From a bacterium (GTDB lineage Bacteria; Patescibacteriota; Saccharimonadia; Saccharimonadales; UBA4665), in contig JAJZOE010000040.1 of assembly GCA_021829145.1 (NCBI GenBank), forward strand, positions 8,098 to 32,097: a DNA stretch of 24,000 nucleotides, read 5' to 3'. Position 1 is the first letter of the stretch. Each line of letters opens with the position of its first letter. Both the position numbers and the translations under genes were made by a program. Under the pieces are notes generated by a model. It saw nothing but the letters and a program-made list of their open reading frames with translations. It made no database searches and had not been told where the DNA came from. This document shows, in pieces, positions 1,144 to 21,623 of this stretch.

Positions 1144-1157
1144 ACGGCTAAAATAGA

Positions 1158-2200: not shown

Positions 2201-3664
2201 CTAGCCAGTAGCTAGCGGCTGATAAACAATATCCAACCCAGAGGTGTCAATACTAAATGCAGAAAGATATCTTTGTAAAGATGAAGCACAGTATTGCTGA
2301 CTTATATTTGATGGATAAGAAACATATAATATCGCACTGTTAAAGTTAACATAATTTACTGAGCATAAACCCTGTAATACATTTGGAAAAATAGCACTGA
2401 AGGAAGAAAATTGAAAGTTTTGAGCTGTTCTATTTAAACCTATACGGTAAAGTTGGTTACCTGATTGACTGGTATTGATTATCGGAGAATTGCTGACGGT
2501 GAAATAAACGAAACTACCTGAATAGTCAGGATATATATTGTCTATATATGATTGTCCGGCAGTTTGAGCTATTTGACCAGAATAGTTATTAGCAATCGAG
2601 TATTTCCAGAGGCTACCACCCGAGGAGTAATAGAGGGTATCTCCATTTCCCCAAGCCATATCGCTTATTGTGCCGTTACTCGTAGAGTTATCTACCAAAG
2701 ACATCGAGCTATTGTAAATATTGATCCCTCCGGTAGAAAGTGATGCTATATACTTTCCATCTGGAGAAACGGCAATATCCTGTGAAAATATATTTGTTTC
2801 TAAGTTCTTAGAACCATTTAGCAGGGTTATATTACCTTGCAAGTCGGGATTATTCTTATCAGGACTCAACAATAAAGCTATTGTTCCTGAATTAGAGGAC
2901 ATCCTAATTATTGAATTATTTGATTGGAAGATTTTATGAAAGTTACCAGATCCACTTCCCATATACAATTCTCCACCATTGCTTATATAGATGTACCCTT
3001 TATTATCTATGAAATAGTTTACAGATGATTTAGGTGTAAGTTTAAACGGAAGCTTAAGATTAGATATGCTGCCATTTTTGAATAGAAATATACCCATTGA
3101 ATTTCTAAGAAGACCTAGCCCAGAAGCATTCCAAGTGGCCGAGCTATATTTTATATTACCCAATACACTAACAATATTGTTTTGATTTATTGTTGTTAAT
3201 AGACCGGAGGAATCGAGGAAGGTTAAGGATGATGATCCGGGGTATAAATAGGATAAACTTGATCCATACACCCCTACCGGAGTAACTGAGAAACTATCCA
3301 AGTAAAGCTTATATGTTTTTTTAGATGATTCATTTATCGTTACAGTCTTAACTAGTCGATTAGAATTATTAAAAACACCCAACTGATACTCTCCATATCT
3401 TACCGAAATAGACAAGAAATGCTTTGCGGAAGTCATTTGGCTGACTAGAGGCAGTCCGTTTTTAACAGGAGTTATGGACACATAATTAGAGGGGTTGCTA
3501 CTTTCAACTATAATTGTAGTGGTGGTAAGTAATGTGTAAACCCATAATAGTATAAAAATAAATACAACAATAAATATTAATAGAAATAAAACCTTTCTTA
3601 TACTCTTAATCCCAAATATCGCTCTACTTATTACCATGATGGCCACCCTGATGGAATTGTGCAT
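2201..3664 (-). CDS. Hypothetical membrane-anchored, N/S-rich protein with beta-propeller-like (TolB/PD40-like) repeats; last gene of the T4SS-like operon
   Basis: 487-aa ORF with one N-terminal TM helix (VLFLLIFIVVFIFILLWVYTLL). Repeated motifs such as SPDGKYIASLSTGGINIYN and GDTLYYSSGGSLWKYS resemble propeller blades. An alternative start at ATG 3637 (MVISR...) overlaps the upstream stop as ATGGTAA, which would fit translational coupling. The domain call is tentative. Confidence 0.7.
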   Translation of the reverse strand: MHNSIRVAIMVISRAIFGIKSIRKVLFLLIFIVVFIFILLWVYTLLTTTTIIVESSNPSNYVSITPVKNGLPLVSQMTSAKHFLSISVRYGEYQLGVFNNSNRLVKTVTINESSKKTYKLYLDSFSVTPVGVYGSSLSYLYPGSSSLTFLDSSGLLTTINQNNIVSVLGNIKYSSATWNASGLGLLRNSMGIFLFKNGSISNLKLPFKLTPKSSVNYFIDNKGYIYISNGGELYMGSGSGNFHKIFQSNNSIIRMSSNSGTIALLLSPDKNNPDLQGNITLLNGSKNLETNIFSQDIAVSPDGKYIASLSTGGINIYNSSMSLVDNSTSNGTISDMAWGNGDTLYYSSGGSLWKYSIANNYSGQIAQTAGQSYIDNIYPDYSGSFVYFTVSNSPIINTSQSGNQLYRIGLNRTAQNFQFSSFSAIFPNVLQGLCSVNYVNFNSAILYVSYPSNISQQYCASSLQRYLSAFSIDTSGLDIVYQPLATG

Positions 3665-5541
3665 GGCGGGTTTGCTTCCTGGGAGATTCCACCAGGTCCT
3701 CCAAGGCTCTGCAGGAATTGTGAAAAATTAACGCCAAACGATGAAGAAACTTTATCCCAGCACGATACTGCCATTGAGTCGCCAAGGATGCTCGGGTTTC
3801 CCCAGCCAGTCTCTATGCCATTGCCACAGTTTACCATTTGTGCAATTACGGTGTTGGAATCGACAGTCTGTCCTTGTTGAACTTCAGGTGTAATACATTC
3901 AGCCACATAAACTTCCATTCCTTTGGCTGGTCCGTCATTTAGTGTATATGCCAAATAAGGTTCACCCTTATACCAGTTAGGAAATATGCCATTAATTGTT
4001 GCATCGCCAATTGCATATATTGGTCCTGTGCCTGAGAAGTCTACCCCTTGGTCTATTCTTTCTGGATTTAACTGGCTAATATCTCTAAATGGGTATTGAT
4101 ATCCAGAAGAGGCCCCAGATAAAGTTGTGGATGAGGATGTTGCAGGACCCTGCGATCCTGGATTAGGATTACAAGAGATTGAGGCAATAGAAACACCACT
4201 GGATAAGTCGTTTAGGATTTTTTCGGCGGTAGGTAGTCTTACAGCTACAAAACTACTATATTCATCTTTAGGTGCCTCAAATCCCGGATAAGACTGCCCG
4301 ACATTAGACGGAGAATACGATTGAGCCGTACCTGCCATATTACCTTGAAAAGCCAAGGTTGCCATAACCACGTTAGGTGCTGCTTTGATTTGCGCCATAA
4401 CGCTAGAGTATGAGCTATTTAATTCTCCTAAAATCATTTCAAGTTGAGTGCTTAGACTATCTATTGGAGATGTGAGCCCAAGTTGTTGGTAAACCGTATT
4501 AGCCTTATTTGAAGGAGTCCATTGAGCGATTCCCCAACCCGTTCCGGAAGGAGCGTTTGAATTACCTCCTCCTGCAATTTCAGTAGGTATTAGAGAAGAC
4601 TCTGCTACCAGGTTTCCTACAATACCCGCAGACTCTGTATCTGTGAATCCATTCTGTACAAAGAAATTGAACGCTTGTTGCTCAGCGTTGTTGCCTGTTA
4701 AAATAGCCGAACCCTCATTACAGCAAGCCAAGGTTTGATTAACCTGGGTTCCAGAAGCGTAAGCACTATTACTCGTGACAGAGTTTACAACTAAATTTAC
4801 AAGAGCATCTACACCTGCCGGAATTGTAGGATGAACATTTAACCCATCTGATTGATCGATGTAATTATTTGTATCCGTTTCATTGCCGGTCATTTGAATG
4901 GGGTTGCCATTAGGATCAACCGTCTTAAACCAGCTTATGACTGAATAGTGGTCTACGGAGGCTTGGCTATATATTGCTTGGTTTTGTGCTTGTATCAGTG
5001 CCGTATAATCGGGGCGATTAATAACAATAGTATCTACCCAATATATAGGTGCAGAAGAATTTATGACTCTTATTGCATTAATAGCTGCATTTATGCTTTG
5101 TACAGTATCGCCTCCATTAGTGCCTAAGGCTATAACTATTGCACTAGCTTGCTTTATACTTGATTGATCTGCAGTAATAGCTTGCATGCCTGTTGTTTGA
5201 GTCTGGTCCATCCCTGGAGTAGATAAGCTCCTTCCGTATTGACCATCGACTATCGCAGTAATTTGTAGTTTTTGAAAAGCAGAAACATAACTACTAGCAG
5301 CTCTTTCTGTAATTGAGTCTCCAAGTATATAAACACTTTGACCTGAAGATAATGTACCTTGGGTTGCAGAGTTGGTTGAGTTAATGGCTGACCCACATAA
5401 ACCACTTAGTGAGTTATTCCCTGTGTAATATTCACTATCTCCATATAGTCTTTGTAATTGAGCACCAGTTAGAGCATATACATTATGGCTTAATCCTAGA
5501 AGGAAAATTGATAATACCAGTATAAAAATAGGTCTTCTCAT
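3631..5541 (-). CDS. Secreted three-domain cell-wall hydrolase: SGNH/GDSL esterase + phage-tail-lysozyme-like domain + degenerate LytM/M23-like domain (functional analogue of VirB1/PrgK)
   Basis: 636-aa ORF with signal peptide MRRPIFILVLSIFLLGLSHNVYA. SGNH blocks are VYILGDSITERAA (GDS), IALGTNGG and DGLNVHP. The lysozyme-like signature is AGIVGNLVAESS...GWGIAQWTPS. The C-terminal IDQGVDFSGTGPIYAIGDATI...GQTVDSNTVIAQM...GNGIETGW is collinear with M23 motifs, but the metal-binding His residues are replaced. Confidence 0.85.
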   Translation of the reverse strand: MRRPIFILVLSIFLLGLSHNVYALTGAQLQRLYGDSEYYTGNNSLSGLCGSAINSTNSATQGTLSSGQSVYILGDSITERAASSYVSAFQKLQITAIVDGQYGRSLSTPGMDQTQTTGMQAITADQSSIKQASAIVIALGTNGGDTVQSINAAINAIRVINSSAPIYWVDTIVINRPDYTALIQAQNQAIYSQASVDHYSVISWFKTVDPNGNPIQMTGNETDTNNYIDQSDGLNVHPTIPAGVDALVNLVVNSVTSNSAYASGTQVNQTLACCNEGSAILTGNNAEQQAFNFFVQNGFTDTESAGIVGNLVAESSLIPTEIAGGGNSNAPSGTGWGIAQWTPSNKANTVYQQLGLTSPIDSLSTQLEMILGELNSSYSSVMAQIKAAPNVVMATLAFQGNMAGTAQSYSPSNVGQSYPGFEAPKDEYSSFVAVRLPTAEKILNDLSSGVSIASISCNPNPGSQGPATSSSTTLSGASSGYQYPFRDISQLNPERIDQGVDFSGTGPIYAIGDATINGIFPNWYKGEPYLAYTLNDGPAKGMEVYVAECITPEVQQGQTVDSNTVIAQMVNCGNGIETGWGNPSILGDSMAVSCWDKVSSSFGVNFSQFLQSLGGPGGISQEANPPCTIPSGWPSW

Positions 5542-8363
5542 TAGTTCGCCTGGGCTAGTGACAAATAGTTTGCCATTACCTGAGTGTCTAAAATGTACTG
5601 CTGATAACGAGCTAAGTCATTATTTATCTGACCATGTTTAAAAAGATAATTAGTGCAATTTAGCCTGTATTGGGGTGATTTAGGATTTGTTGATTTAAAA
5701 CCCATGTCTTCGCAATATATGTTTGCAACAGTATTGTTTGTCGGAGAGTATTGTTGGTTCATAGCTTGGGTTTGCGAGGAACCGCCTGATGATAAATTGC
5801 CCGATAACTGACCTAGGCCATAATACTCACCATTAACCTGTTGACCACAATGGGTGTCAGGTGTTGCATGCGGAAAATTTTTGTTAGTGTTAGCAGTACT
5901 AGAATTGGTTGTATTTGTCATCAGTAAATTAAAGCTAAGATTGAAGCAATGATACAAATCCTGGTAGTTAAAATCAGTGTTAGGTGTTATTGGTTTGCCG
6001 TTTATATCAGGATTGCCTAAAGCCTTGATCCTTTGAATAGTGTAGGTACTTCCGTTTTGCTTATATTTTACGTTGGTGAATAGATAGTCTTCATTTTGTA
6101 TTGGATCATAAGCTCCGGCCTGAGAGTTAGTCATCCCGTATTCTTGTGTTTGGTATGCTTGCCACGGCTGGCTATTAGTACTCGCAGATGTAGCTGATAT
6201 TTTACCAACGAATAAGCTAGAGAACACAGACCCAATTATCTTAGGGAAAGACAGTATAAAACTGCTTATACGACTGAATGTGCCTTCTAAACTTAAAGGT
6301 AAAGCCAGCGAAAGCCGAGAAAATAGAGAGTATGGATCATTAAAAGAGAACAACCTATAGGATAAAGGTTTGTTATTAAGATCGGCAACATAGTTAGAGT
6401 TAGCCTTGGTAGATAAAGAACTAGCTTCACTAGAGCTAATAGGCAATGCTCCCAAATGCCTAGAATAATCGTTATAGGATATATTAAGTCCAGCATCCAT
6501 ATTATTCAATTTATCAGGAGCGGTGGCTCCGATAATACCTACAGGGGTGAAGGCCTTAAGAACGTCAGGAAGTATATTGTGTTGTATTACGGATTGAGCC
6601 TTATAAATTGTTGCACCAATAGCCGCCTGCTCTGCGGCACCACCCGCACAATCTACGATAGTACTACATTGACCAATCTCGCTACCTAATTGAAATGCAC
6701 CTATTCCACCTTGAACAATGAAGCCCAACCAGCTGGTAAGGCCGCCGCAAACCCATCCAAATAAATTCATACCCGGAATATTGTTTATTTCATTAAGCAA
6801 TGAAGTGGCTGAATTTGGAGTAGGTGTTACCATAGGGTTAATATCCGGTGTGTAACCTTTATAATGATCGGTTGTACTAGTTATTGGAAGGTTGTTAGCA
6901 CGAAACCAAGCAGCTGATCTGCTGAATGGCAGAGCGGATACAGGTAATGTGCCATATTTGGTGCGCTTAGCAGCGGAGTTTCCCATAAAGCCTTTCATAA
7001 TCGTTGCTACCTGCGTGCTAGTAATATGTCCAGTTTTTAATTGATCAGCAAGTGTAGGCAGTAGATTCCCGTATCTCATAAGCATTGAAGCAATTTCTGG
7101 CAATCTTTGTAAAGCGGTTGACTGAATAGTGTCTTTGATTGTACAAGCTGTAGTAGCCAGAGATGAAAGAAGTAATGGATTAATCCCTCCAAATGCTTTT
7201 ACCCCCGCGTCTATAGCAGATGACGCACTTTCACCATTGGCTAAAGCCTGGTCGGTTGCAGAAATAGCCGATCCCGCTTCCCCCACGCCTCCTTTAGCAA
7301 AGTCGGCTTGTTGTTGAGCGGCAATCTTGGGATCGGAAGAAGGACTGTTCTCGGATATTCCATCTGAGGCTAGTGATTGGGTTGCAGATTCACCTTGAAT
7401 AGCCTCTTGATCAATAGTCTGCTCAGTTTGCTTGGCATCTTCACCCTCCGTTACCCCGGATTCGTTTACATTAGCGTCCTCCGCCATTGTCGGAGCATAG
7501 CTATTTATGGTGCCTACCTGTGTTTCTTTTAGTGCGGATACAAAACTATCGCCTAATGAACTAGAGTCAAGTTGTTCTGCTGTTACTGGTGCTCCGGTGC
7601 TTGAATCTATTATAATGCCGCCGTTTTTTACCTCAAAGCCATTATCTGCCAAAAGATTTTTAACTACAGGATCATCAAAACTGAATTTATTGATGTCTTC
7701 TGTTAAGCCCATGCCGCTTTCCTCTGTGGTATTAGCTGCATCTTCTGCAGCAGCACTATTATTACAAAGGTTAGAGTTAATAGGCAGCGCTTTACAAATT
7801 AAGTCAGTTGCAAGTGATTTTGCGGCTTTTCTCTCAAAACGTTGTTCAATCTTCGTCTCTTCTCTAAGCATAACCTTTTCAATGGTAACCAACGCATGTG
7901 TTGCTAAAAATGTGAACCCGCTTATAACAAGTAATGCTATACCGCCAATGGCGCCACCACCGATTAATGTTGCTTTTCTTCTCTTTTTGCTTCCACCAAA
8001 AAACTTACCTGCCTTTCCTAAGGCATTTAACAGAAGCTTTGCTTCACCTACACCGGCAAGGCCCATGCCGGCTGCAGCCAGGCCTTTTAGTCCCCTTCCT
8101 CTTACTTTAGGCTCGTCTTCTTCAGAAGGTGACTCTGAATCGTCTGGTGAATAAAATCCACCACCGTCATTACCACTTTCTGTGCTAAAAGATCGCTCCT
8201 GCTTAGCAATATCTTCGTCGGCACCCTTTTTTGCTTCCCTATCGTGAGCTTCTTCTTGTTCTTTATTTATGCCTGTCAGATGGCGAAGATCATCATCAGA
8301 GGGCAGGTACCCCTTACTGAATTCCTCATTATTGTCTTTATTTAATTTGGAAGAGTTGGCCAC
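5541..8363 (-). CDS. Large hypothetical membrane protein (T4SS-associated, no recognisable family)
   Basis: 940-aa ORF with a GTG start. It has an acidic/basic N-terminal region, a Gly-rich TM helix (ATLIGGGAIGGIALLVISGFTFLATHALV), a long S/T/N/A-rich region, and further hydrophobic segments (GMNLFGWVCGGLTSWLGFIVQGGIGAF; RISSFILSFPKIIGSVFSSLFVG). Its stop overlaps the next gene's start as TAATG at 5539-5543. Confidence 0.8.
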   Translation of the reverse strand: MANSSKLNKDNNEEFSKGYLPSDDDLRHLTGINKEQEEAHDREAKKGADEDIAKQERSFSTESGNDGGGFYSPDDSESPSEEDEPKVRGRGLKGLAAAGMGLAGVGEAKLLLNALGKAGKFFGGSKKRRKATLIGGGAIGGIALLVISGFTFLATHALVTIEKVMLREETKIEQRFERKAAKSLATDLICKALPINSNLCNNSAAAEDAANTTEESGMGLTEDINKFSFDDPVVKNLLADNGFEVKNGGIIIDSSTGAPVTAEQLDSSSLGDSFVSALKETQVGTINSYAPTMAEDANVNESGVTEGEDAKQTEQTIDQEAIQGESATQSLASDGISENSPSSDPKIAAQQQADFAKGGVGEAGSAISATDQALANGESASSAIDAGVKAFGGINPLLLSSLATTACTIKDTIQSTALQRLPEIASMLMRYGNLLPTLADQLKTGHITSTQVATIMKGFMGNSAAKRTKYGTLPVSALPFSRSAAWFRANNLPITSTTDHYKGYTPDINPMVTPTPNSATSLLNEINNIPGMNLFGWVCGGLTSWLGFIVQGGIGAFQLGSEIGQCSTIVDCAGGAAEQAAIGATIYKAQSVIQHNILPDVLKAFTPVGIIGATAPDKLNNMDAGLNISYNDYSRHLGALPISSSEASSLSTKANSNYVADLNNKPLSYRLFSFNDPYSLFSRLSLALPLSLEGTFSRISSFILSFPKIIGSVFSSLFVGKISATSASTNSQPWQAYQTQEYGMTNSQAGAYDPIQNEDYLFTNVKYKQNGSTYTIQRIKALGNPDINGKPITPNTDFNYQDLYHCFNLSFNLLMTNTTNSSTANTNKNFPHATPDTHCGQQVNGEYYGLGQLSGNLSSGGSSQTQAMNQQYSPTNNTVANIYCEDMGFKSTNPKSPQYRLNCTNYLFKHGQINNDLARYQQYILDTQVMANYLSLAQAN

Positions 8364-8442
8364 GGATATATAAGTTTTTTCTTAATGCTTCTGGCATTAT
8401 TATACTCCGTTGGCTACTATGTTTGCGGTTCTTTTACTGGGC

Positions 8443-9168
8443 CTACCTAGCTCGTCTTCTTATTCGCTTACCTCTGCGATCATAGCTTGATGCAACCTTA
8501 GCCAATTCTTCTGTACTCTTTTCGGCTTTTTGCTCCAGTTTACTTATTCGGTTAACTGCTTTTCTGGCTGCTTTTCGTTCTTTTCTAGTACGAGGTATAT
8601 TTGCATTAGTGATAGAGGAACCGTAATCCATACTAATAGCTCTTGCTTCCTGAGATAATTCGTTGCGCTCATCTATAAGATCATTTATTTTTCTAGCAGT
8701 TTTATGCTCTTTTCGCGAAGAAGGCCTTAGTGTATTAGGAACAGTACGAGGTCCGTCGTGAGTTTTTCTCATTAGCCATTCACCCATATGAGTAAAGTCA
8801 CCCTCGTATGTACCTGCCGGTAAGCTGCGGTCAACCACTTCTTCTTTCAAGTATCCTACCCACCCAATCTTTTCTTTCGGATTACCTGTTTGTCTCGGAT
8901 TCACTAACCTGTCGCCAACATATTGAGCAACTTCTATGTGTCTTTGTGCCTCCGCTTGTCTAGCCTCTCTGCCCTTTTCAGTAAATACCCTAAATAGGCC
9001 TTTTACAGCAGCTACAGACTCTGTTACAGCTCCTGGATACCCTTCGAACCCCGGTTCATGGATAATTGTCTCATTCGGGGGCTCGGGAGAACTAATAACG
9101 GGCCCGTTATCTCTTATGTGATTAATTAATTGTTGCAATTGATTTGGATCGTATGGATGGGATTCCAT
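8443..9168 (-). CDS. Hypothetical soluble protein with a highly basic C-terminal half
   Basis: 241-aa ORF with no TM helix or signal peptide. The C-terminus is rich in R/K (RTRKERKAARKAVNRISKLEQKAEKS...RRGKRIRRRAR). It sits within the operon between the VirB6-like and 940-aa genes. Confidence 0.7.
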   Translation of the reverse strand: MESHPYDPNQLQQLINHIRDNGPVISSPEPPNETIIHEPGFEGYPGAVTESVAAVKGLFRVFTEKGREARQAEAQRHIEVAQYVGDRLVNPRQTGNPKEKIGWVGYLKEEVVDRSLPAGTYEGDFTHMGEWLMRKTHDGPRTVPNTLRPSSRKEHKTARKINDLIDERNELSQEARAISMDYGSSITNANIPRTRKERKAARKAVNRISKLEQKAEKSTEELAKVASSYDRRGKRIRRRAR

Positions 9169-9269: not shown

Positions 9270-9983
9270 GTGAAAGTGAGATACAGACGTATGAGCGAGA
9301 AGCAACTATTGGTATATGGGGCCAGGATTAGATTGGCCTGGTTTAGAAAAGCAGAGGAACTTGGGAGTGTTAGTGCTGCCTGTAAGTACTATGGCATACC
9401 TAGGCGAACATACTACTACTGGTACAAACGTTATGTTGACGGCCACAAACTGTTAACTAGCCTATATGACTTACCTAGGATCCCTAAGAGTCATAAACAG
9501 GACTTAAGCGAAGAGTTAGTTAGCCTCATTGTTCAGCTAAGACTAGGGCTCGGCTATGGAGAGAATGCCTTAACTCATGTTCTAGGCAGAGATTATGGCG
9601 TACGCCTATCCCATCATGCGGTTGGTAATGTACTGCGCAGAGCATCTTTAACCGAACCTAAGCCCCGTAAAAGGCGTACACAACGTCAACTTAATGACTA
9701 TCCTTACAAACCAGGTGAAGTAGGACAGATGGATGTTAAGCATTGGAAACGGGTGGCTTACCAGTACGATTTAATTGACTGCGCCACCAGGATTAAGTAC
9801 AAACGTTTGTATCCAGGTTACAGTCCAGCTGAAACCATAGACTTTCTAAAACACGCCATCAGGTTCTTTGACCCAGCTTTTAGCTTTAAGACTATTCAAA
9901 CAGACAATGGCCCAGAGTTTGTTTACGACACCAAGCCACAGATTAAATTAACTACCGTCTCACCAGTTACTAAGTGGCTAGAC
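9270..9983 (+). pseudogene. IS481-like (rve integrase-core) transposase, 5' fragment
   Basis: HTH-like N-terminus, then the DDE core start: GQMDVKHWKRVAYQYDLIDCATR...IQTDNGPEFV. The frame breaks at the nested IS. The 12 codons after 9983 in the ORF track (STYAKSVSSNW) are read from the inserted element. Confidence 0.8.
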
Positions 9984-9998
9984 TCGACTTACGCAAAA
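9984..9998. repeat. Left terminal inverted repeat of the nested IS (TCGACTTACGCAAAA)
   Basis: Exact reverse complement of 11106-11120, checked base by base. Confidence 0.9.
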
Positions 9999-11050
9999 TC
10001 AGTCAGCTCAAACTGGTAGGCAGGATTTCTCCAAAGCTGTTTCTGGTATTCCCGTAAGGGGATATGCTTAACCTCGTACATGGTGGTCTGCATTTGCTTG
10101 GCTAGTTCATTGAATTGATGCCAAACAACAAAAGCAATGCAGATATGGTTCCGCTGTTTTCTACCTTTCCTGGCTTGGCACTTGGCTACGCCAGTTAATT
10201 GTTTAACCTCTCTATGAAACTGTTCGATCTTCCAACGAAAGCCGCCAACCTGTTTGGCAGCCTCTGTGGTCTCGGTACTTACTTGGTTCGTCACCAAGTA
10301 TTCCACCCGGTGTTTAGCCGTGAGCTGGAATAGTTTCAACTTCTTATCTTTAGGCAGAAAATCTACGCAAACAAGCTTGCCATGTTCTTTAAGCTCGGGA
10401 TCTTCCCAGTCCAGATCACCAACATGCTTGTAGATAATCTGCATTTCGCCAGTCGTCTCGTTGGGGTACTCGTAGCTCACTATCCGGCTTTTAGGCATCA
10501 CGCCAAAGAAGTATTTATTGATGCGAATTACGTATTGCATGATCTGCTTGCAGGTGTAACCTGCGTCAATGAGAACTGTGGTAAATGGTGCACGGCTAGG
10601 GTGCAGTTCACCTATGGCTTGCCAGTACCGAATCATCTCTAGGGCATGAGCTGTTTTCTTCTTACCGTCAGTAGCTTTGTCATAAATCCGGTAGTCAAGT
10701 ATCCAGTATTTGTCTAGTTCAGGATTAATGTAGACCAGCGTGACAACACCAATGCCAGTGGTAATGCTATGCTTTTGTCCGGAGTACTGGGCGGAGGCTA
10801 CTTCAATCTGTTCGGACGATGCTTTATCCATGACCGTGTCATCCAGAGCCAAATAGCCGTTCTTACTGGGGATGATGAGCTCCAAGGCTTTTTCCCGTAC
10901 TACCTTGGGCGACAACTTAATGGTAGCGATTGATCTGCCTATGGTGTCATGGGACACTGTCCCGATGACTTCTGAGAAGTAAGTAGCCGTAAAGTTATCT
11001 ACCCCATTAAGTAACATCTGAGCATAGTCAGACGTCACGATTTTTGCCAT
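9989..11050 (-). CDS. DDE transposase, IS4 superfamily (IS701-like)
   Basis: 353-aa ORF. Candidate DDE residues lie in LALDDTVMD, VLIDAGYT and FRWKIEQFHREVKQLTG (R-x3-E-x6-K signature of IS4-type enzymes). An AAGGAGA SD lies 5 nt upstream of the ATG. The 3' end of the ORF runs into the terminal repeat. Confidence 0.85.
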   Translation of the reverse strand: MAKIVTSDYAQMLLNGVDNFTATYFSEVIGTVSHDTIGRSIATIKLSPKVVREKALELIIPSKNGYLALDDTVMDKASSEQIEVASAQYSGQKHSITTGIGVVTLVYINPELDKYWILDYRIYDKATDGKKKTAHALEMIRYWQAIGELHPSRAPFTTVLIDAGYTCKQIMQYVIRINKYFFGVMPKSRIVSYEYPNETTGEMQIIYKHVGDLDWEDPELKEHGKLVCVDFLPKDKKLKLFQLTAKHRVEYLVTNQVSTETTEAAKQVGGFRWKIEQFHREVKQLTGVAKCQARKGRKQRNHICIAFVVWHQFNELAKQMQTTMYEVKHIPLREYQKQLWRNPAYQFELTDFA

Positions 11051-11121: not shown

Positions 11122-11456
11122 TAGAGAGCCATAGTATTGAGCATGGTTGCATACCGGTTCGTTCACCACATCTTAACGGTAGAATTGAACGATCTCATGG
11201 TGTAGATAAAGACCGTTACAAACGTCTAACGACAAACAGCCACGACAAAAGTGAATTGCAAGCCTTCCTCATTGATGACTGCCTAGACTACAACTTCTAC
11301 CGACCGCACAGTATGCTGAACATGATGACACCAATTGAGTACTTACAAAGTCTGCCTGGCTACGAGAACGCTAATATTGATACAAGTTGCTACTTGTTTA
11401 GGAGGGCGACCAGCAGCAAATTAACCAAGATCTATCATTTCTACACCAAGAGATGA
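11122..11456 (+). pseudogene. IS481-like transposase, 3' fragment
   Basis: Same frame as 9270-9983. It translates to ...HSIEHGCIPVRSPHLNGRIERSHGVDKDRY...FYRPHSMLNMMTPIEYLQ, which holds the catalytic E region and the rve C-terminal motif. The frame has no stop before the putative IS end and terminates at TGA 11454-11456, inside the convergent neighbouring gene. Confidence 0.75.
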
Positions 11457-14400
11457 GTAGTCAACCAAGTAGTATCCGCGATCATCAGTATAAACTGCCT
11501 CTGGATGTATAGCTATAATATCCTGAGCCATTACACCGATATAGCATTTCTCTTTTCCAATGTATTTAAAGGTGTACATGGGAACGTTATCATCTGTTGT
11601 ATAGAGGTACCTAACCTCTTGTTTTAACCTAATATCTGAAGGTGCTGGAGGACCTGGAGGGCCAATAGGAGGTCCTGCAGGCCCCGGAGGACCTGGTGGT
11701 GGCATATTTGCAGCGGCAGCTTCTTGATTGGTAGTCAATACTTTTTTATATTGTTGGAATTCTCTATCTGACTCAACGGCTGAAAGAACCTCGCCAAGAG
11801 TTCCTGCTCTTCTGGATACTTCAGCCCTTTCCATTACAGGCATATTGGTAGAAGTGTCTATGGCCGGGTTTCCGTCTTTATCCATTACCTGCCTCATACC
11901 ATACACTGGTACGGAAGTAACTGAAGTCAACGGAAGATTTTGTCCCATGACCGCTCCTACAATTGCGTTGTTTTCTGGACTTAACTGCGACGCTATGTCA
12001 AGAAACGAGGATGTATGTGCAAGTGTACGTTTAAGTTGACGTTCTGCATTTGCTATAGCTACCTGATTACCTGATTGTCTTGCTGTTTGAACATCTGCAA
12101 CTGCTCTTCCGAGCCTACGCTGCATTGCAGGTACCATAATTTGAAGAGAGTTATTTCTAGCACTACCAATTTCGCCTGCACTCTTGGTGTCCATAACCTC
12201 ATCGGTCATAATCTCGTTAACTGCAGCATCGTTCGTATTACCCGTATAGAGTTGAGACAATTGATCCATAGACGTGGCAACCCCAGCCCCGTATAGATCC
12301 ACACGCCTAGCTTGCTGCGCCTGCTGCCTGGCACTAATTAACATCCTGGCTGCTCTAGCCCTGTCTCTTCCAGCAACACGGTTGATTGTACGTAACATTT
12401 CTGCTGGACCTCCTCTATAACCAGTTCCTGTTCCTGCTAAGTTAGCAGCTGCAAAATCCTCAAACGCCTCAACTCCAACTTCTTTTCTGGCTCTAATAAT
12501 TGACGAAACATTTTGATCAAGCTCGGCACCAGTTTGCCCGATTCCCTCTAAGTAAGAGCGTATATCTTCTTCGGTTCTGTTACGGTATAAGGCTGCTCTA
12601 AGCAGATCATCATTACCTTTAATCATACTCACTGCAGCGCTTTTTTCTGCTTCTGATGAATGCACGCTTGTCATTTCAGATCTAACAGAATCTAGGTTGC
12701 CTCTAATTCTGGCAGGATTAAGTCCTGCTTTCCCCGATGCAATTAGGGAAGCGCTTTGGAGCCTTTGATTTAGCCTGTGTCTTAGGCTAGAAGGGTCCGC
12801 ATTCTTAAAGTGTTTACCTGCTAGAGTGTTATTGAAATTCTTTGCGGCTTGTTTTCTGGCCATACCCATCAGGGGTTTATTTACTCTAGATGTCATCTTG
12901 GATACAGCTCCGGATACACTCCCTATCACGCCACCTGACATTCTAAAAGCAAACGGTATTAGGAATAACGGGGCAACAACTGCAATAAGCGCCATACATT
13001 GGGCAAGAATTGTTGGTTTAATGGTCTGATCAAAATCACTCATAACCACACCGCTCACGTATGCCATTGCAAATACAGAAGTAACTATTGGGTATACGGT
13101 CAAAGTCTTGATTAGTAGTCCCCACCATTTCTTAAAATATTGTTCCGTATTAGGCAGAACATAAAGAGCAAAAGCTACAGGTGAAATTAAAAGAAGAAAA
13201 ACTAATAGCCCCTGTCGGACTATAACAGTTATAAATATGCCTAGAACTGCTACAAGTGCCATTATTACAACCAATAATAAGATGCCAATACTGCCTGCCG
13301 TAAGTACGCCAAAGGCTAAAGCACCAAGACCTAGAGATAAAGCACCTACGCCTAAAAGGCCGGTTCCTCCACCTATATTCATTCCTGGTAAGACGCTCTT
13401 ACTCCCACCCATAATCGACCCAGCCGCTGCTCTGAAAGGAGCCTCAATAATTGAGCTTATACCAGCACCAAGTATGTTGAAGATATCTTCAAGCCCGGCG
13501 ACGATGTAAATTGATAAATTAATTAAGATGGCCGCTACAAGGATCCGGGGCAATACTTTTCTAACGGTGTAAGCTTCAATCATGCCACCACCTGCAGCCT
13601 CCCCATATACGATTGCCAACATCGCAATCACCAGGATAATATCGCCATATAACCGGAAGTTTGACCAAACATGATACAATGCAGAACTAAAATTCGCTTC
13701 AGAGCTACAGGAGGACCCAGGCTTGTTAGAACAGCTCAGGCTGCTTGTAAAACTAATTGGCTTAGTTTGAAGCAGGTCTTGAACATATTTTTCAATACTC
13801 TGTTCGGCGCCGGTTACCGCATTTATAACAGGACATATAACCCAAGCTAGAGAGAAACCACTAGACTCACATTGTGACGGTCCACTAGAAGGCGTTTGCG
13901 CAGGGGTAGATGTTGACGATGCATTCGCTGGTACGAAACGTTGATTTTTTACTAAAATAATGGAAATTGGCTGTGACATACTTGCATTTAAATTTTTAAG
14001 CTTTTCTGACGACTCAACTTGATAATAAGGAGGATTGCCCAATGGTGATGGCGAATAGTTGATGACTACATCATATTTATTTGGCGTAACATTGTGTGCC
14101 TGAAACACGCCATCATTTACGGCCGTTAATGATTTATCACCATTTGAACAACTGGATGAATTTTTAGACGCTAATATTAAACAAAGCCCAACATATGTAC
14201 CATTTTTGGGAGCTTTCGTTGTATTACAGCTTGAATTGCAGGTACTATTTTGGGTATATCCAACATCGAAGGTAACCGTAGGAATAACCTTTGTTTTAGT
14301 AGTGGATAGTGTAATACTAGACGTTTTATATACTCCTAGCCACTGACTCACCTTGCCACACAGATTAATGAACGCAATAGCAGAAGAAGATCCTTTAGTG

Positions 14401-14807
14401 ACTTCTAAATTGACATTTGTGTTATTGTTTGCGTTTTGGCAGGCTTGTATGTTTTGGGTGGTGGCAACATTTTTAAAGTATGGGGAGAGAAAACAGTTAT
14501 TTGATGTATCGTAATTATAACTAGAATAAACTCCGCCATTTATTGAAAACTTATATCCCGTAGAGTTGGATTTATTACTTACACCGTTAATAGGAAAACA
14601 CAATTGTATTGAATCGGCTGCCCCAATTGTGTTTATTGGGGTTGAGCCGTCTATTATTGTTAGTTGCTGTGTATTATTTGAGGTAGATGAAGCGTGTGCT
14701 ATTTTAGAAGTCTTTATAACTAAAGACATAAAGACAGCAAAGAAAAGAATAAACAGAAGCCCAATTATTTTTATTTTTCTCATGTTAAATTTCTTATATC
14801 TTGTCAT
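11421..14807 (-). CDS. TrbL/VirB6-like polytopic membrane protein with a Cys-rich N-terminal ectodomain, a long helical C-terminal region, a collagen-like tract and a C-terminal Peptidase_S74 intramolecular-chaperone domain
   Basis: 1128-aa ORF. Signal/anchor is IIGLLFILFFAVFMSLVI. Residues about 35-380 are N/S/T-rich with 12 Cys. Residues about 385-635 hold about 7-8 TM helices, including the VirB6/TrbL-like RQGLLVFLLLISPVAFALYVLPNTEQYFKKWWGLLIK. The C-terminal features are listed separately. The alternative start is ATG 14783. Confidence 0.85.
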   Translation of the reverse strand: MTRYKKFNMRKIKIIGLLFILFFAVFMSLVIKTSKIAHASSTSNNTQQLTIIDGSTPINTIGAADSIQLCFPINGVSNKSNSTGYKFSINGGVYSSYNYDTSNNCFLSPYFKNVATTQNIQACQNANNNTNVNLEVTKGSSSAIAFINLCGKVSQWLGVYKTSSITLSTTKTKVIPTVTFDVGYTQNSTCNSSCNTTKAPKNGTYVGLCLILASKNSSSCSNGDKSLTAVNDGVFQAHNVTPNKYDVVINYSPSPLGNPPYYQVESSEKLKNLNASMSQPISIILVKNQRFVPANASSTSTPAQTPSSGPSQCESSGFSLAWVICPVINAVTGAEQSIEKYVQDLLQTKPISFTSSLSCSNKPGSSCSSEANFSSALYHVWSNFRLYGDIILVIAMLAIVYGEAAGGGMIEAYTVRKVLPRILVAAILINLSIYIVAGLEDIFNILGAGISSIIEAPFRAAAGSIMGGSKSVLPGMNIGGGTGLLGVGALSLGLGALAFGVLTAGSIGILLLVVIMALVAVLGIFITVIVRQGLLVFLLLISPVAFALYVLPNTEQYFKKWWGLLIKTLTVYPIVTSVFAMAYVSGVVMSDFDQTIKPTILAQCMALIAVVAPLFLIPFAFRMSGGVIGSVSGAVSKMTSRVNKPLMGMARKQAAKNFNNTLAGKHFKNADPSSLRHRLNQRLQSASLIASGKAGLNPARIRGNLDSVRSEMTSVHSSEAEKSAAVSMIKGNDDLLRAALYRNRTEEDIRSYLEGIGQTGAELDQNVSSIIRARKEVGVEAFEDFAAANLAGTGTGYRGGPAEMLRTINRVAGRDRARAARMLISARQQAQQARRVDLYGAGVATSMDQLSQLYTGNTNDAAVNEIMTDEVMDTKSAGEIGSARNNSLQIMVPAMQRRLGRAVADVQTARQSGNQVAIANAERQLKRTLAHTSSFLDIASQLSPENNAIVGAVMGQNLPLTSVTSVPVYGMRQVMDKDGNPAIDTSTNMPVMERAEVSRRAGTLGEVLSAVESDREFQQYKKVLTTNQEAAAANMPPPGPPGPAGPPIGPPGPPAPSDIRLKQEVRYLYTTDDNVPMYTFKYIGKEKCYIGVMAQDIIAIHPEAVYTDDRGYYLVDYSSLGVEMIDLG
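11424..11639 (-). other. Peptidase_S74-like intramolecular chaperone / autoproteolysis domain (C-terminal 72 aa of the VirB6-like protein)
   Basis: SDIRLKQEVRYLYTTDDNVPMYTFKYIGKEKCYIGVMAQDIIAIHPEAVYTDDRGYYLVDYSSLGVEMIDLG. It matches the family hallmarks S-D-x-R-x-K (Ser/Lys dyad with a 5-residue offset), hIGhhAQ-h...P-hV and h-V-D-Y-s-x-L. Confidence 0.75.
11640..11705 (-). repeat. Collagen-like Gly-Pro-rich tract (PPPGPPGPAGPPIGPPGPPAP) immediately before the S74 cleavage serine
   Basis: The plus strand reads ggtgctggaggacctggagggccaataggaggtcctgcaggccccggaggacctggtggtgg. The protein shows G-P-P/G-P-A triplets with one interruption. Confidence 0.85.
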
Positions 14808-14859
14808 TTTAACTAATAAATACTACAAAATTCATTCACTTTTTCCATTTTCATCTAGA

Positions 14860-14888
14860 ATTATAAACAAAAGCATTAAAAAAATCAG
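14860..14888 (-). promoter_or_regulatory. Weak candidate internal promoter upstream of the VirB6-like gene (-35 CTGATT, 17 nt, -10 TATAAT)
   Basis: Located in the 102-nt AT-rich gap between the VirB4 stop and the VirB6-like start. The -10 is perfect and the -35 is poor. Motif evidence only. Confidence 0.25.
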
Positions 14889-14909
14889 TTATTTGGCTAA
14901 ACCACTGCA

Positions 14910-16841: not shown

Positions 16842-16842
16842 A

Positions 16843-17694: not shown

Positions 17695-17704
17695 TGGTTT
17701 GCAA

Positions 17705-18822: not shown

Positions 18823-18901
18823 TGTCTGTCATATGTAATAAAATCTATAGTTTGCCTGGGTATAGCTATTGAAGAGATATCTACCCGTATGCCCGTATAC
18901 C

Positions 18902-18930
18902 TTGAAGGAGTTAGTGTTTCATATTATAGT
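18902..18930 (+). promoter_or_regulatory. Candidate promoter of the pilin array (-35 TTGAAG, 17 nt, -10 TATAGT)
   Basis: TTGAAG at 18902-18907 and TATAGT at 18925-18930, followed by TAAGG SD (18936-18940) and ATG 18949. This supports the internal start for pilin 1. Confidence 0.4.
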
Positions 18931-18948
18931 AGTTCTAAGGTTCAGCAG

Positions 18949-19431
18949 ATGATAAAAAGCAAAAAGCATACCAGGAGAACGCTAACGGTAATTTTTACGG
19001 TTCTAGCTTTACTATTTCCATTAACTGCAACCGTCAGCGCTGTTTCTGTTAACCCCGCTTCAGCTCCCTTGTCGCAGTTTGCTTTATCGCAGTGTGGCAG
19101 TAAAAGCGAAGCGGTCCCAACCAGTATTAACTTCGGTTGTACTGGGGCTCAGTGTATCAGCAACCCCAATAGCGCATACTGCCAAACCCCTCACAGTGGA
19201 ATAGTCGACCTAACTTTTGCAATTATTCGTTTTTTGACTGACGGCGTAGGCCTGGTTTTGATAGCTTCCCTGGTTATAGCAGGTATTCAATATACAACCT
19301 CAAGAGGCGAACCCCAAGCTATGAGTAGTGCTTCAAAGAGAATCCAGAGCACTCTTACAGCACTATTTGTTTATTTGTTTATTTATGCAATTCTAAATTA
19401 TGTAGTTCCCAGTAAACTATTCGGACAATAA
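18949..19431 (+). CDS. VirB2/TrbC-like T4SS pilin paralog 1
   Basis: Signal peptide MIKSKKHTRRTLTVIFTVLALLFPLTATVSA, a 4-Cys variable region, then a two-TM core IAGIQYTTSRGEPQAMSSASKRIQSTLTALFV. The track ORF begins at 18889, but ATG 18949 has an SD and yields a canonical signal peptide. Confidence 0.8.
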   Translation: MIKSKKHTRRTLTVIFTVLALLFPLTATVSAVSVNPASAPLSQFALSQCGSKSEAVPTSINFGCTGAQCISNPNSAYCQTPHSGIVDLTFAIIRFLTDGVGLVLIASLVIAGIQYTTSRGEPQAMSSASKRIQSTLTALFVYLFIYAILNYVVPSKLFGQ

Positions 19432-19433
19432 AG

Positions 19434-19823
19434 ATGATAACCAGACTTTTTCAACAATTTGCCTCATCTTGCACTCCCAGCGGAGGCAGCTTTTTTGGAA
19501 TACCCAAATGGTATGCCTATCTACCAGGCCGGTCAGATCCAGTTACCGGAGTATGCACGCCTAACTTTACTAGTATTGGTGACTTTTGGCTGATTGTAGC
19601 TGCAGTAATCGAAATGCTGCTCAGGCTTGGGGCAATTGTTGCAGTTTTCATGGTTATTTACGGTGGTGTTACTTTCGCAACTAGTCAGGGCAACCCGGAA
19701 GATACCAAGAAGGCCAGAAGTACCATAATCTATGCTCTAGTGGGCTTGCTGGTATCTATCACGGCCTCGTTTATTATTACCTTTGTTGCTAAGAGTGTGA
19801 TGACAAGGAGCGTAACGGCTTAA
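19434..19823 (+). CDS. VirB2/TrbC-like T4SS pilin paralog 2 (no obvious signal peptide)
   Basis: 129 aa. Cys pair (SSCTPS...GVCTPN), then core IYGGVTFATSQGNPEDTKKARSTIIYALVGLLV. The start is 2 nt after the stop of paralog 1. Confidence 0.8.
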   Translation: MITRLFQQFASSCTPSGGSFFGIPKWYAYLPGRSDPVTGVCTPNFTSIGDFWLIVAAVIEMLLRLGAIVAVFMVIYGGVTFATSQGNPEDTKKARSTIIYALVGLLVSITASFIITFVAKSVMTRSVTA

Positions 19824-19827
19824 GCTT

Positions 19828-20166
19828 ATGTTAAACCTATTGCACGTTATCGCCAGCACCTGTACGGGAAGCCAATACAGCCTTCATGTTGATGGTAGGG
19901 GTACCTGTTACAACACTGGAATACCGACCGTTCAATCCGGCAGTCATGAACTTCAATTTATTTTGCAATTATTCTTTGCCATACTGGCGGCTATCTCGGT
20001 ATTGTTTGTAGTCATCGGAGGTATGCGATATACCATTTCCGGGGGCGACCCGGAAGATATGTCTAAGGCCAAGAACACGATTATCTACGCCCTGGTAGGT
20101 TTAGTTGTTGCCTTATTTGCTGAAGCAATCGTTAGCTTTGCCTTAGGGTATATACAAGGTCTATAG
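19828..20166 (+). CDS. VirB2/TrbC-like T4SS pilin paralog 3 (no obvious signal peptide)
   Basis: 112 aa. Cys pair (STCTGS...GTCYNT), then core IGGMRYTISGGDPEDMSKAKNTIIYALVGLVV. Confidence 0.8.
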   Translation: MLNLLHVIASTCTGSQYSLHVDGRGTCYNTGIPTVQSGSHELQFILQLFFAILAAISVLFVVIGGMRYTISGGDPEDMSKAKNTIIYALVGLVVALFAEAIVSFALGYIQGL

Positions 20167-20168
20167 AA

Positions 20169-20573
20169 GTGAGGAAGCTAATATACTCAATTATTACCGG
20201 CATTATTATTTCCCTGTCGGCCTTTCTGCCGGTATCTGCAGCCAGTAGCAGCAGTGGAGCTATATCCAGTAGTAATTTCATTCCTGTCTGTAGTGGCATA
20301 GCTAAACCTACCATACCCTGCCAGGACTCAAACGCCCAGTCAGGGAATACCATTATTAAGATCATTAAAGATGTTATAGATATTATTTCCTTTATCGTCG
20401 GCGTTGCTGCCGTATTTATAATTATCGTCAGTGGTATGAAAATGGTGGTAGCTAGCGGAGATTCAAAAGCTCTATCAGAAGCAAAGACCGGCATAGTTGG
20501 AGCTATTATAGGAATATTAGTAGTTGTTCTGGCTCAAGGATTCGTAGTATTTGTATTAGATAGGATAAAATAA
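20169..20573 (+). CDS. VirB2/TrbC-like T4SS pilin paralog 4
   Basis: 134 aa with a GTG start. Signal peptide ...IIISLSAFLPVSAAS, Cys pair (PVCSG...IPCQD), core VSGMKMVVASGDSKALSEAKTGIVGAIIGILV. Confidence 0.8.
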   Translation: MRKLIYSIITGIIISLSAFLPVSAASSSSGAISSSNFIPVCSGIAKPTIPCQDSNAQSGNTIIKIIKDVIDIISFIVGVAAVFIIIVSGMKMVVASGDSKALSEAKTGIVGAIIGILVVVLAQGFVVFVLDRIK

Positions 20574-20574
20574 A

Positions 20575-21048
20575 ATGAAGTTATTAATGAACAGAACCAT
20601 TCGTATCATTGCAATAATCGTTTTTGGGATCAGTCCTTTCATTATTAGCCAATCGGTATCTGCCCAGTCGGCTGCCTATTCCAGTGCTTGTCAGGGGATA
20701 AGTGAGTTAGGTGCTGGTCAAGGCTGTAGCAGTGGTCCTTCCACCTTTGATAATCTAATCAAGACCGCAGTTGATATCTTAAGTTATATAGTGGGAATTG
20801 CTGCCGTCATTATGATTATTGTGAGCGGATTAAGGTTCGTGATGGCTGGTGGTGAAAGCCAGGCAGTTTCTGGAGCTAAAAACTCGCTTATCTGGGCTAT
20901 TGTTGGTATTGCTGTGGTTGCGCTTGCCCAAGTTATCGTCCACATGACCCTAAACACGTCAGTTAATATTGCAAAAAACAGTCCTACTTCATCATCTCAA
21001 CAGGCTAAGCAACCGACTAAAACTACTAACCAACCGACGCCACACTAG
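20575..21048 (+). CDS. VirB2/TrbC-like T4SS pilin paralog 5 (polar S/T/Q/P tail)
   Basis: 157 aa. Signal peptide ...IFGISPFIISQSVSAQS, Cys pair (SACQG...QGCSS), core VSGLRFVMAGGESQAVSGAKNSLIWAIVGIAV. It shares LNTSVNI with paralog 6. Confidence 0.82.
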   Translation: MKLLMNRTIRIIAIIVFGISPFIISQSVSAQSAAYSSACQGISELGAGQGCSSGPSTFDNLIKTAVDILSYIVGIAAVIMIIVSGLRFVMAGGESQAVSGAKNSLIWAIVGIAVVALAQVIVHMTLNTSVNIAKNSPTSSSQQAKQPTKTTNQPTPH

Positions 21049-21058
21049 TGTTACTTTA

Positions 21059-21086
21059 TTGATTTTCTTCTTATCAGTGCTATTAT
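21059..21086 (+). promoter_or_regulatory. Candidate internal promoter for pilin paralog 6 (-35 TTGATT, 16 nt, -10 TATTAT)
   Basis: Lies in the only sizeable gap (74 nt) of the pilin array and is followed by AGGAAAGG SD and ATG 21123. Motif evidence only. Confidence 0.35.
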
Positions 21087-21122
21087 ATTTCTGATATAAG
21101 CCAAGGAAAGGTAAAAAATAGA

Positions 21123-21623
21123 ATGATTCAAAAATTTAAAAAACAATTAATGATTGCTGTAGCGGCACTGTCATTGCTGGTACCGGTAGCCGTACCAGCG
21201 GTAGCTTTTGCCAATTCGCCACCCGGCTCAACAGGCTGTACGAGCAATAATATCGCTAGTCAGGTGGGTAATGGTATAGCATCAGCCACAAACCAAACAA
21301 CCAATTCCTGTGGTACTGGCTCTGACATTACAAACGGTGTTAAGAAGATTGCAATAAATGTAGTTGATATCCTGTCGGTTGTTGTAGGTATTGTTGCTGT
21401 TATTATGATCATCTACGCAGGACTAAGATATGTAACCTCTGGGGGCGAGAGTGGCGGTGTTACTAGCGCAAAAAACAGCTTGCTTTATGCGATCGTAGGA
21501 TTAGTATTAGTAGCTCTAGCTCAGTTTATAGTCAGATGGGTGCTCAACACTTCAGTTAATATTGGTACAACAAGCCCACAAGTAGTCAATTTTATTAACC
21601 TTATTCACTTAATAAGGTGGTAA
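21123..21623 (+). CDS. VirB2/TrbC-like T4SS pilin paralog 6
   Basis: 166 aa. Signal peptide ...LLVPVAVPAVAFANS, Cys pair (TGCTSN...NSCGTG), core YAGLRYVTSGGESGGVTSAKNSLLYAIVGLVL. It is the paralog most similar to paralog 5. Confidence 0.82.
   Translation: MIQKFKKQLMIAVAALSLLVPVAVPAVAFANSPPGSTGCTSNNIASQVGNGIASATNQTTNSCGTGSDITNGVKKIAINVVDILSVVVGIVAVIMIIYAGLRYVTSGGESGGVTSAKNSLLYAIVGLVLVALAQFIVRWVLNTSVNIGTTSPQVVNFINLIHLIRW

Follow-up and report, generated by a model that had tools for sequence, protein, structure and literature searches.

A Peptidase_S74 domain of the phage tail-fiber type recurs at the C-terminus of VirB6-like type IV secretion proteins in Saccharibacteria

The DNA analyzed here is a 24,000-nucleotide stretch of a Saccharimonadales genome (positions 8,098 to 32,097 of contig JAJZOE010000040.1, assembly GCA_021829145.1), which we refer to as the window, and our subject is a gene on its minus strand whose 1128-residue product joins a VirB6-like protein of a type IV secretion system (T4SS) to a C-terminal Peptidase_S74 domain. 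An earlier note, made from the sequence alone, had drawn attention to this end of the protein; the interval it named, 11424-11705, does translate as residues 1035-1128. The gene and the parts of its product are as follows.

11421..14807, minus strand: whole VirB6-S74 gene, 1128 residues, stop codon 11421-11423 (open reading frame (ORF) list and translation)
14691..14807, minus strand: residues 1-39, N-terminal hydrophobic signal or anchor segment (12-31), then AHA/SS (hydropathy peak of 2.71 at 12-30; modeled helix 2-33)
13668..14690, minus strand: residues 40-380, N-terminal ectodomain, variable and largely beta, with abundant Cys and Ser/Thr/Asn
12933..13667, minus strand: residues 381-625, conserved hydrophobic core with about seven long helices, TrbL/VirB6-like (hydropathy, invariant columns)
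11703..12932, minus strand: residues 626-1035, K/R-rich juxtamembrane segment and all-alpha hydrophilic 'extended VirB6' C-domain
11640..11702, minus strand: residues 1036-1056, Pro/Gly-rich low-complexity linker PPPGPPGPAGPPIGPPGPPAP, predicted local distance difference test (pLDDT) score below 50, read from its sequence as not collagen
11622..11639, minus strand: residues 1057-1062, SDIRLK, with the predicted autocleavage site before Ser1057 and the Ser1057/Lys1062 dyad
11424..11639, minus strand: residues 1057-1128, short-form Peptidase_S74 domain (intramolecular chaperone auto-processing) that would weigh 8.4 kDa on release

In translation, the C-terminus of the protein consists of the linker followed by SDIRLK...LG; the last residues of the ORF read ...NMPPPGPPGPAGPPIGPPGPPAP SDIRLKQEVRYLYTTDDNVPMYTFKYIGKEKCYIGVMAQDIIAIHPEAVYTDDRGYYLVDYSSLGVEMIDLG and then the stop, which can also be rendered as ...EAAAANMPPPGPPGPAGPPIGPPGPPAP-SDIRLKQEVRYLYTTDDNVPMYTFKYIGKEKCYIGVMAQDIIAIHPEAVYTDDRGYYLVDYSSLGVEMIDLG and the stop. 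Ser1057 is encoded by the tca codon at 11637-11639 and Lys1062 by the codon at 11622-11624. At the opposite end, AHA/SS is a putative cleavage site, proposed from its A-x-A motif. Our searches found 126 homologues of the 1128-residue protein, mostly from Saccharimonadales. The hydrophobic core has a mean identity of 52% to family members, with an invariant R531, a P552-N-T554 motif and W561, and hydropathy and the structural model place its roughly seven long hydrophobic helices between residues 386 and 622, ahead of a hydrophilic tail of about 500 residues. The ectodomain, which is 16% identical to family members and was modeled as low-confidence beta strands, contains 12 Cys, a single Arg versus 19 Lys, and 37% Ser, Thr or Asn. 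The C-domain (18.5% identity to relatives) contains no Cys, 36 Arg and 14 Lys, and there is accordingly a sharp contrast of composition inside one protein, between a Cys-rich, Arg-poor ectodomain and a Cys-free, Arg-rich C-domain. AlphaFold2 modeled this latter domain with pLDDT scores above 90 over about residues 700-1000, as a globular bundle of many short alpha-helices, and the domain terminates in the family motif (D/N)xEFxQ(Y/M)(K/R)(K/R). A Foldseek comparison of the full-length model with the PDB gave no significant fold match, C-domain included.

The C-terminal 72 residues are a genuine Peptidase_S74, or intramolecular chaperone auto-processing (ICA), domain with its Ser-Lys motif intact, much as the earlier note had read them. 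Residues 1057-1106 align with the Pfam model PF13884 (Peptidase_S74, 'chaperone of endosialidase') along its entire length (positions 1-58 of 58), with a score of 25.9 bits against a gathering score of 22 (E of 1.2e-5 for the full protein), and the last 99 residues alone score 30.9 bits (E of 3.3e-7). When all six frames of the window were scanned with S74 profiles, this domain was the single match. Its structure was modeled with a pLDDT of 85, and the model matches 21 phage 'intramolecular chaperone auto-processing domain' models in BFVD (E at or below 1e-3), with template modeling (TM) scores of 0.55-0.78 and root-mean-square deviations mostly of 1-2 Å. In addition, a profile of 87 relatives compared with all PDB sequences retrieved four matches only, all of them S74/ICA proteins and each aligned at the S-D-x-R-x-K start: the tail fiber 8jov, the GA-1 neck appendage chaperone 3gud, MYRF (7dc3) and gp37 of phage S16 (6f45). 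A phmmer search of the C-terminus against the PDB yielded only spurious Pro-rich matches such as synaptobrevin. IMG/VR viral contigs supplied 87 S74 copies, which are 35-53% identical to the window domain and run for a median of 72 residues from the Ser to the protein end, the same length as here. The possibility that the 72-residue domain is a truncated dead copy was rejected as a default, given that 72 residues is the viral median and that the catalytic motif is intact.

The same fusion recurs in many relatives. An exhaustive HMMER search with an S74 profile against 1.84 billion representative proteins (one per 50%-identity cluster) gave 9711 matches at E at or below 1e-3, and among the best 150 of these 9711, 50 are members of the VirB6-like family, all with a C-terminal S74 domain (the query and P0003, a homologue from another Saccharimonadales genome, are counted; membership was determined by phmmer with residues 300-1040, with E from 1e-162 to 1e-16). 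With each 50%-identity cluster represented in the library by a single protein, they amount to at least 50 distinct lineages, and since the count rests on the best 150 of 9711 matches, the true number of fusions is probably larger. One further fusion, L012, which lies in a canonical VirB6-PrgI-TraC-like-VirB4 locus, brings the number to 51. Fusions that carry names are assigned to Candidatus Saccharimonadales or Saccharibacteria. This recurrence, established for at least 50 distinct members, was unknown to the author of the earlier note, as were the database labels ('tail fiber domain-containing protein') that some homologues already carry. Two of the further searches recovered no fusion: the last 104 residues found no match, not even themselves, in a 5.8-billion-protein index, the query probably being too short for a word index, and a 25-sequence S74 profile returned from the protein index only short orphan S74 proteins and no fusions, and was used as the modeling alignment. 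A contig scan with a two-sequence S74 alignment, whose patterns were too strict, gave 4 unrelated loci.

The S74 catalytic motif is under selection in these fusions. All 49 of 49 aligned fusions, and 50 of 50 by motif, keep the S, D, R and K of S-D-x-R-h-K unchanged, and the Ser/Lys pair is thus conserved in the orthologues (49-51 of 49-51 fusions). In the alignment of 49 fusions, 13 positions are invariant: S1057, D1058, R1060, K1062, Y1078, Y1082, G1091, V1092, A1094, Q1095, V1115, Y1117 and L1120. Most fusions also have a T-x-EEW tail, which the window copy does not carry. Mean pairwise identity in the same 49 proteins is 49% for the S74 domains versus 36% for the hydrophobic core, and there is a weak but significant correlation between core and S74 distances (r = 0.18, a value reached by 4 of 2000 permutations), which is consistent with partial co-inheritance.

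Within the family, the distribution of the domain is patchy. We sampled 73 metagenome loci with a complete 3' end, picked through core motifs, and L012 was the sole S74-positive locus among them; the S74-less loci that were scanned contained no S74 remnant and no separate S74 ORF nearby, and the idea that S74-less relatives represent a split gene with a separate S74 ORF was rejected because none is present at those loci. For 35 of 49 S74-bearing proteins the nearest neighbor by core identity is itself S74-bearing, and S74-positive clades therefore exist. The nearest neighbors of the window protein, P0003, P0218 and others are S74-less. Overall identity within such pairs of an S74-bearing and an S74-less protein is only about 44-53%, and recent gains or losses are therefore not required.

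Two other groups of S74 proteins came to light alongside the fusions. Orphan short S74 proteins of about 90-240 residues (P0121-P0125, P0269-P0380) form a large family, some with two tandem S74 domains and some with poly-Pro right before the Ser. Two orphan loci, L089 and L090, have chromosomal surroundings that look neither phage-like nor typical for candidate phyla radiation (CPR) members, with phasin, dimethyl sulfoxide (DMSO)-reductase-type genes and GGDEF, and L090 holds two adjacent copies. The proteins P0129, P0133, P0142, P0143, P0150, P0154, P0161 and P0163, of 756-1822 residues, start with MGGK(T/S)(S/T)T(T/S) and have a pair of internal S74 domains separated by about 220-260 residues; they would yield three pieces if both domains cleave.

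The VirB6-S74 gene lies within a T4SS locus, the other features of which are listed below (identified by Pfam, and for the first three genes also by precomputed domains).

17705-18784, minus strand: PrgI/VirB3-like gene, upstream, same orientation
16843-17694, minus strand: TraC-like gene, upstream, same orientation
14910-16850, minus strand: VirB4 ATPase gene, upstream, same orientation
18889..21623, plus strand: six tandem T4SS pilin (VirB2-like) paralogues of 112-180 residues, divergent from the operon (T4SS_pilin/TrbC)
2201..9168, minus strand: downstream part of the T4SS cluster, encoding proteins of 241, 940, 636 (a hydrolase) and 487 residues
9270-10019, plus strand: transposase ORF (rve/HTH), not part of the fusion
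9989-11050, minus strand: transposase ORF (DDE_Tnp_1), not part of the fusion

Among 81 family loci, PrgI is present in 62 and VirB4 in 44, the 636-residue protein recurs in 12, and the 940-residue protein in 10. The 636-residue protein (3631-5541, minus strand) is a T4SS-associated cell-wall hydrolase with a Phage_lysozyme2 match and weak M23 peptidase and GDSL-lipase-like matches, and is another phage-type module within the same T4SS cluster. The two transposase ORFs (9270-11050) overlap by 31 bp and separate the VirB6-S74 gene from the rest of the cluster; at L004, the other close fusion, a DDE transposase unrelated to those of the window follows directly after the stop, and the S74-bearing VirB6-like gene is not beside VirB4 or PrgI. 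Adjoining the cluster are dnaN and recF (52-2195, plus strand), an arrangement consistent with what is reported for Patescibacteria, where T4SS loci are origin-proximal and VirB6 is usually encoded beside virB4 and is essential in Southlakia epibionticum (PMC12102498). Comparison of the window (11421-18784) with loci L012, L026 and L047 indicates that gene orders differ, being PrgI, TraC-like, VirB4, VirB6 in the window and pilins followed by VirB6, PrgI, TraC-like, VirB4 in most family loci; the VirB6 gene would therefore have moved to the other side of VirB4 in the window lineage. Identity of the window VirB4 to its counterparts is 79-84% in loci where overall identity of the VirB6-like protein is only 30-45%, and the VirB6-like protein therefore evolves much faster, especially in its ectodomain (16%) and C-domain (18.5%).

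The affinity of the host protein with VirB6 is indirect. The earlier note had called it TrbL/VirB6-like, a designation that holds for its T4SS locus and for a family with TrbL affinity, but not at the level of direct matches: the 1128-residue protein itself has no TrbL/VirB6 match in Pfam or NCBIfam, and comparisons with the VirB6 protein of R388, TrwI, were not significant. In particular, the single T4SS match from Foldseek was R388 chain 8rtd_L (rank 43, E of 1.5, probability 0.41, TM score on the target 0.35; not significant), and hhalign aligned PNTEQYFKKWW with QPTHRFFDQW (TrwI 190-214) with only 7% probability, again not significant. A tblastn search of the hydrophobic core against 72,556 plasmids gave no match, and the family profile found no VirB6 among PDB sequences. 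The Pfam TrbL model PF04610 does, however, match 16 of 34 relatives (best E of 1.3e-5), and many relatives carry a precomputed PF19590 assignment. VirB6-type features are present as well, namely at least five (about seven) long hydrophobic helices and a gene in a T4SS cluster beside VirB3 and VirB4. Context, architecture and transitive weak homology, without a direct match, thus suggest that the host protein is an extended VirB6/TrbL-like protein.

S74/ICA domains of endosialidases, tail spikes, tail fibers and MYRF associate as trimers, and it is trimer formation that brings the Ser-Lys dyad into position to cut the chain at the Ser. With this in mind, we consider it somewhat likely that the domain described here is a transient, self-removing oligomerization module on the alpha-helical C-domain of a Saccharibacteria T4SS VirB6-like subunit. 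By analogy with phage fibers and spikes, S74 domains of neighboring subunits would associate post-translationally (as a trimer in all characterized cases), and the association would draw the C-terminal regions of VirB6-like subunits together during assembly of the machine. The Ser1057/Lys1062 dyad would then cut before Ser1057, freeing an acidic fragment of 8.4 kDa and leaving a mature subunit whose last residues, ...GPPGPPAP, would resemble the ends of S74-less relatives. Because the membrane anchor is N-terminal to the cut, only the chaperone piece would be released. The invariance of the catalytic motif argues that cleavage matters, and the patchy distribution argues that the module is an assembly accessory and not part of the working machine. 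A more specific version, in which Saccharibacteria took over a phage tail-fiber assembly module to control assembly of their essential T4SS through a transient three-fold (or otherwise non-pentameric) association of VirB6 followed by an irreversible self-cut, is possible but doubtful.

A number of observations weigh against this reading. At the level of the domain, the E-values of the four PDB sequence-profile matches are weak (0.05-0.9), a Foldseek comparison of the S74 model with solved PDB structures returned no S74 match, and the window copy is the shortest of the 51 fusions and has Gly1084 (11556-11558; W1084G) where 46 of 49 fusions have the Trp of a Y-I-W motif. The domain is preceded by a flexible linker of 21 residues and a bundle of short helices, not by the triple beta-helix or coiled coil that S74 folds. 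It is also dispensable, being missing from 72 of the 73 sampled family loci. The main difficulty is one of symmetry: a trimerizing module is at odds with a VirB6 that forms pentamers in R388 and Dot/Icm and, by prediction, in Gram-positive systems too (PMC9259494, PMC12857230). One could speculate that a flexible linker together with self-removal reconciles a transient three-fold contact with a five-fold end state or, alternatively and just as speculatively, that the contact relates to the six-fold VirB4 layer.

Other explanations concern either the reality of the junction, the nature of the linker, or the place and fate of the domain. The presence of two transposase ORFs directly downstream of the gene, and of a downstream transposase at the P0003 locus likewise, might suggest that the fusion arose as a chimera of assembly, by a frameshift that joined two genes, or at a junction made by neighboring insertion sequences, but the chance of this is negligible. 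The identical 1128-residue protein is found on 5 contigs from three independent assemblies (ENA ERZ27237454, ENA ERZ27237063 and Logan SRR13190158, the ENA pair being metagenome assemblies), and the fusion is therefore not a chimera; the short contigs stop 330-440 bp past the stop codon, at the transposase ORFs, and therefore break downstream of the gene and not at the S74 junction. Moreover P0003 (963 residues) is collinear with the window protein over 278-1125 at 41% identity, linker and S74 domain included, and itself passes the Pfam PF13884 threshold (24.6 bits); there are 50 further independent fusions, and the transposases beside the two closest fusions are unrelated. The concern that the 3' end might be a chimera or frameshift, raised in the earlier note, is thereby answered. 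A related candidate, in which the S74 segment travels with the adjacent transposase, was rejected because of those unrelated transposases and because S74-less loci contain no S74 remnants. As for the linker, the run of triplets GPP-GPA-GPP-I-GPP-GPP, placed beside a domain that forms trimers in known cases, led the earlier note to propose a short triple-helical collagen-like stalk nucleated by S74, a proposal that we now regard as very unlikely. The 21 residues before the Ser comprise a PPP lead-in and then GPP-GPA-GPP-I-GPP-GPP-AP, that is, only 3+2 triplets with the register broken by Ile1048; they were modeled as disordered, and the Pfam model Collagen (PF01391) has no match on the 1128-residue protein at E up to 1. 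In the 51 fusions, the longest G-X-Y run is 1 in 40, 2 in 10 and 3 only in the window protein, and linkers of other fusions are poly-Gly, poly-Ala, poly-Gln or mixed P/G/A (that of the closest S74-bearing homologue is PPPGTPPGGGPPAP), or are absent (P0145, P0147, P0156 and P0180). S74-less relatives commonly finish in the same sort of Pro/Gly tail, many of them at alignment positions 1039-1062 of the window protein, around the predicted cut, and the family motif at the end of the C-domain is the last conserved element in S74-bearing and S74-less proteins alike. With linkers so variable and tails so similar in S74-less relatives, the tract is therefore best read as an ancestral low-complexity tail serving as a linker, not as a conserved collagen stalk.

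The topology of the C-domain bears on whether the S74 module faces the cytoplasm or the outside. Residues 621-680, which follow the last helix, contain 11.3 K/R versus 2.8 D/E per sequence across the family, and positive charge is found family-wide in the loops after helices 1 and 5 and above all in the 60 residues past the last helix. Such a charge pattern agrees with seven helices and a cytoplasmic C-terminus, and the C-domain and S74 module are probably cytoplasmic rather than external; conservation was not used in support of this assignment because identity in the C-domain is as low as in the ectodomain. The earlier note had suggested either a fiber- or spike-like appendage or a trimer-locked cytoplasmic tail, and in the former arrangement the C-domain and S74 would lie outside the cell as a trimeric host-contact tip on an epibiont T4SS, functionally replacing VirB5. 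The VirB6 of R388 spans the membrane with helices alpha1 and alpha2 only, most of the protein being periplasmic and projecting outward (PMC9259494); hydropathy-based topology is unsafe for the VirB6 family for this reason, and the precedent speaks for an external C-domain, as do the facts that the N-terminus of the CPR protein likewise begins outside and is joined to about seven long helices, that all known S74 passengers are external fibers or spikes, and that extended VirB6 C-domains carry no assigned function (PMC12857230). We nevertheless consider an external spike unlikely, given the strongly K/R-rich segment past the last hydrophobic helix, a C-domain composition opposite to that of the ectodomain, the modeling of the preceding 400 residues as a globular bundle of short alpha-helices with no fiber, and the absence of S74 from most family members. 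Less probable still is a permanent oligomerization or docking domain, in which an uncleaved S74 fold would be kept as a hub, contacting for example the VirB4 hexamer. The passenger is not a fiber in need of a folding chaperone, and flexible linkers would suit a tethered hub; but none of the 49-51 fusions departs from the Ser/Lys dyad or from the Asp and Arg next to it, which would be unexpected if catalysis were irrelevant, and S74-less relatives function with nothing past the tail. A transient module that removes itself thus continues to be the reading that we favor.

The fusion appears to be undescribed. Our search of the full-text literature turned up no publication that connects S74 or intramolecular chaperone domains with VirB6 or with a T4SS, in agreement with the earlier note, whose author was aware of no such report, and a dedicated survey of Patescibacteria T4SSs mentions neither S74, tail fiber nor chaperone (PMC12102498). 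Both parts are nonetheless known families, and public pipelines already detect S74 on these proteins. Indeed, 'tail fiber domain-containing protein' and 'endosialidase-like protein' are the names that the NCBI and JGI pipelines give to these T4SS subunits, and such labels could mislead prophage and T4SS surveys of CPR genomes. The Patescibacteria T4SS, virB6 included, is required for epibiotic growth in the one species tested (PMC12102498, PMC12857230), and the function of the large 'extended' VirB6 C-domains is an acknowledged gap (PMC12857230). A recurring phage module with an invariant catalytic motif, putatively oligomerizing and self-cleaving, offers a cheap experimental handle on the assembly of these C-domains. 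The fusion also widens the range of S74 chaperones beyond fibers, spikes and MYRF, and raises the puzzle of trimer versus pentamer. Were the proposed assembly role to prove true, T4SSs would have their first example of an autoproteolytic assembly checkpoint, S74 domains would have their first non-fibrous, membrane-embedded passenger, and the stoichiometry of CPR VirB6 could differ from that of the canonical pentamer.

The closest comparison set is provided by the C-terminal intramolecular chaperone domains of phages (those of K1F endosialidase, the GA-1/phi29 neck appendage 3gud, the L-shaped tail fiber of T5 and S16 gp37 6f45). The domain described here resembles these in its C-terminal position, its S-D-x-R-x-K start, its hVGVhAQ and GYY-V-Y-x-x-LG motifs and its predicted fold. 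Unlike them, it is optional within its family and lacks a virion context, and its passenger is a polytopic secretion-system membrane protein that combines an alpha-helical domain with a flexible linker. With extended VirB6 proteins (F TraG, Rickettsia RvhB6 and MPF_FA homologues) and with Patescibacteria VirB6, the window protein shares a hydrophobic multi-helix core with a large C-proximal hydrophilic domain, and a gene beside VirB3/VirB4 and near the replication origin (PMC12857230, PMC12102498); it differs from them in its putatively self-cleaving domain of phage type, and we found no report of an autoproteolytic or phage-derived domain in any VirB6. Outside the fusions, the nearest S74 sequences (up to 146 bits) are the orphan short proteins of 90-240 residues annotated 'tail fiber domain-containing protein', which often have a Pro-rich stretch directly before the Ser, as here, but occur stand-alone or in tandem and without a VirB6 part, two that we sampled being among ordinary chromosomal genes. 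To our knowledge, MYRF is the only well-known non-viral use of an S74 domain, and there too the domain sits on a membrane protein (7dc3), with trimerization coupled to self-cleavage by Ser and Lys. The geometry of the two is nevertheless reversed: the MYRF anchor is C-terminal to the cut, and a transcription-factor trimer is freed, whereas here the anchor is N-terminal and only the 8.4-kDa piece would leave.

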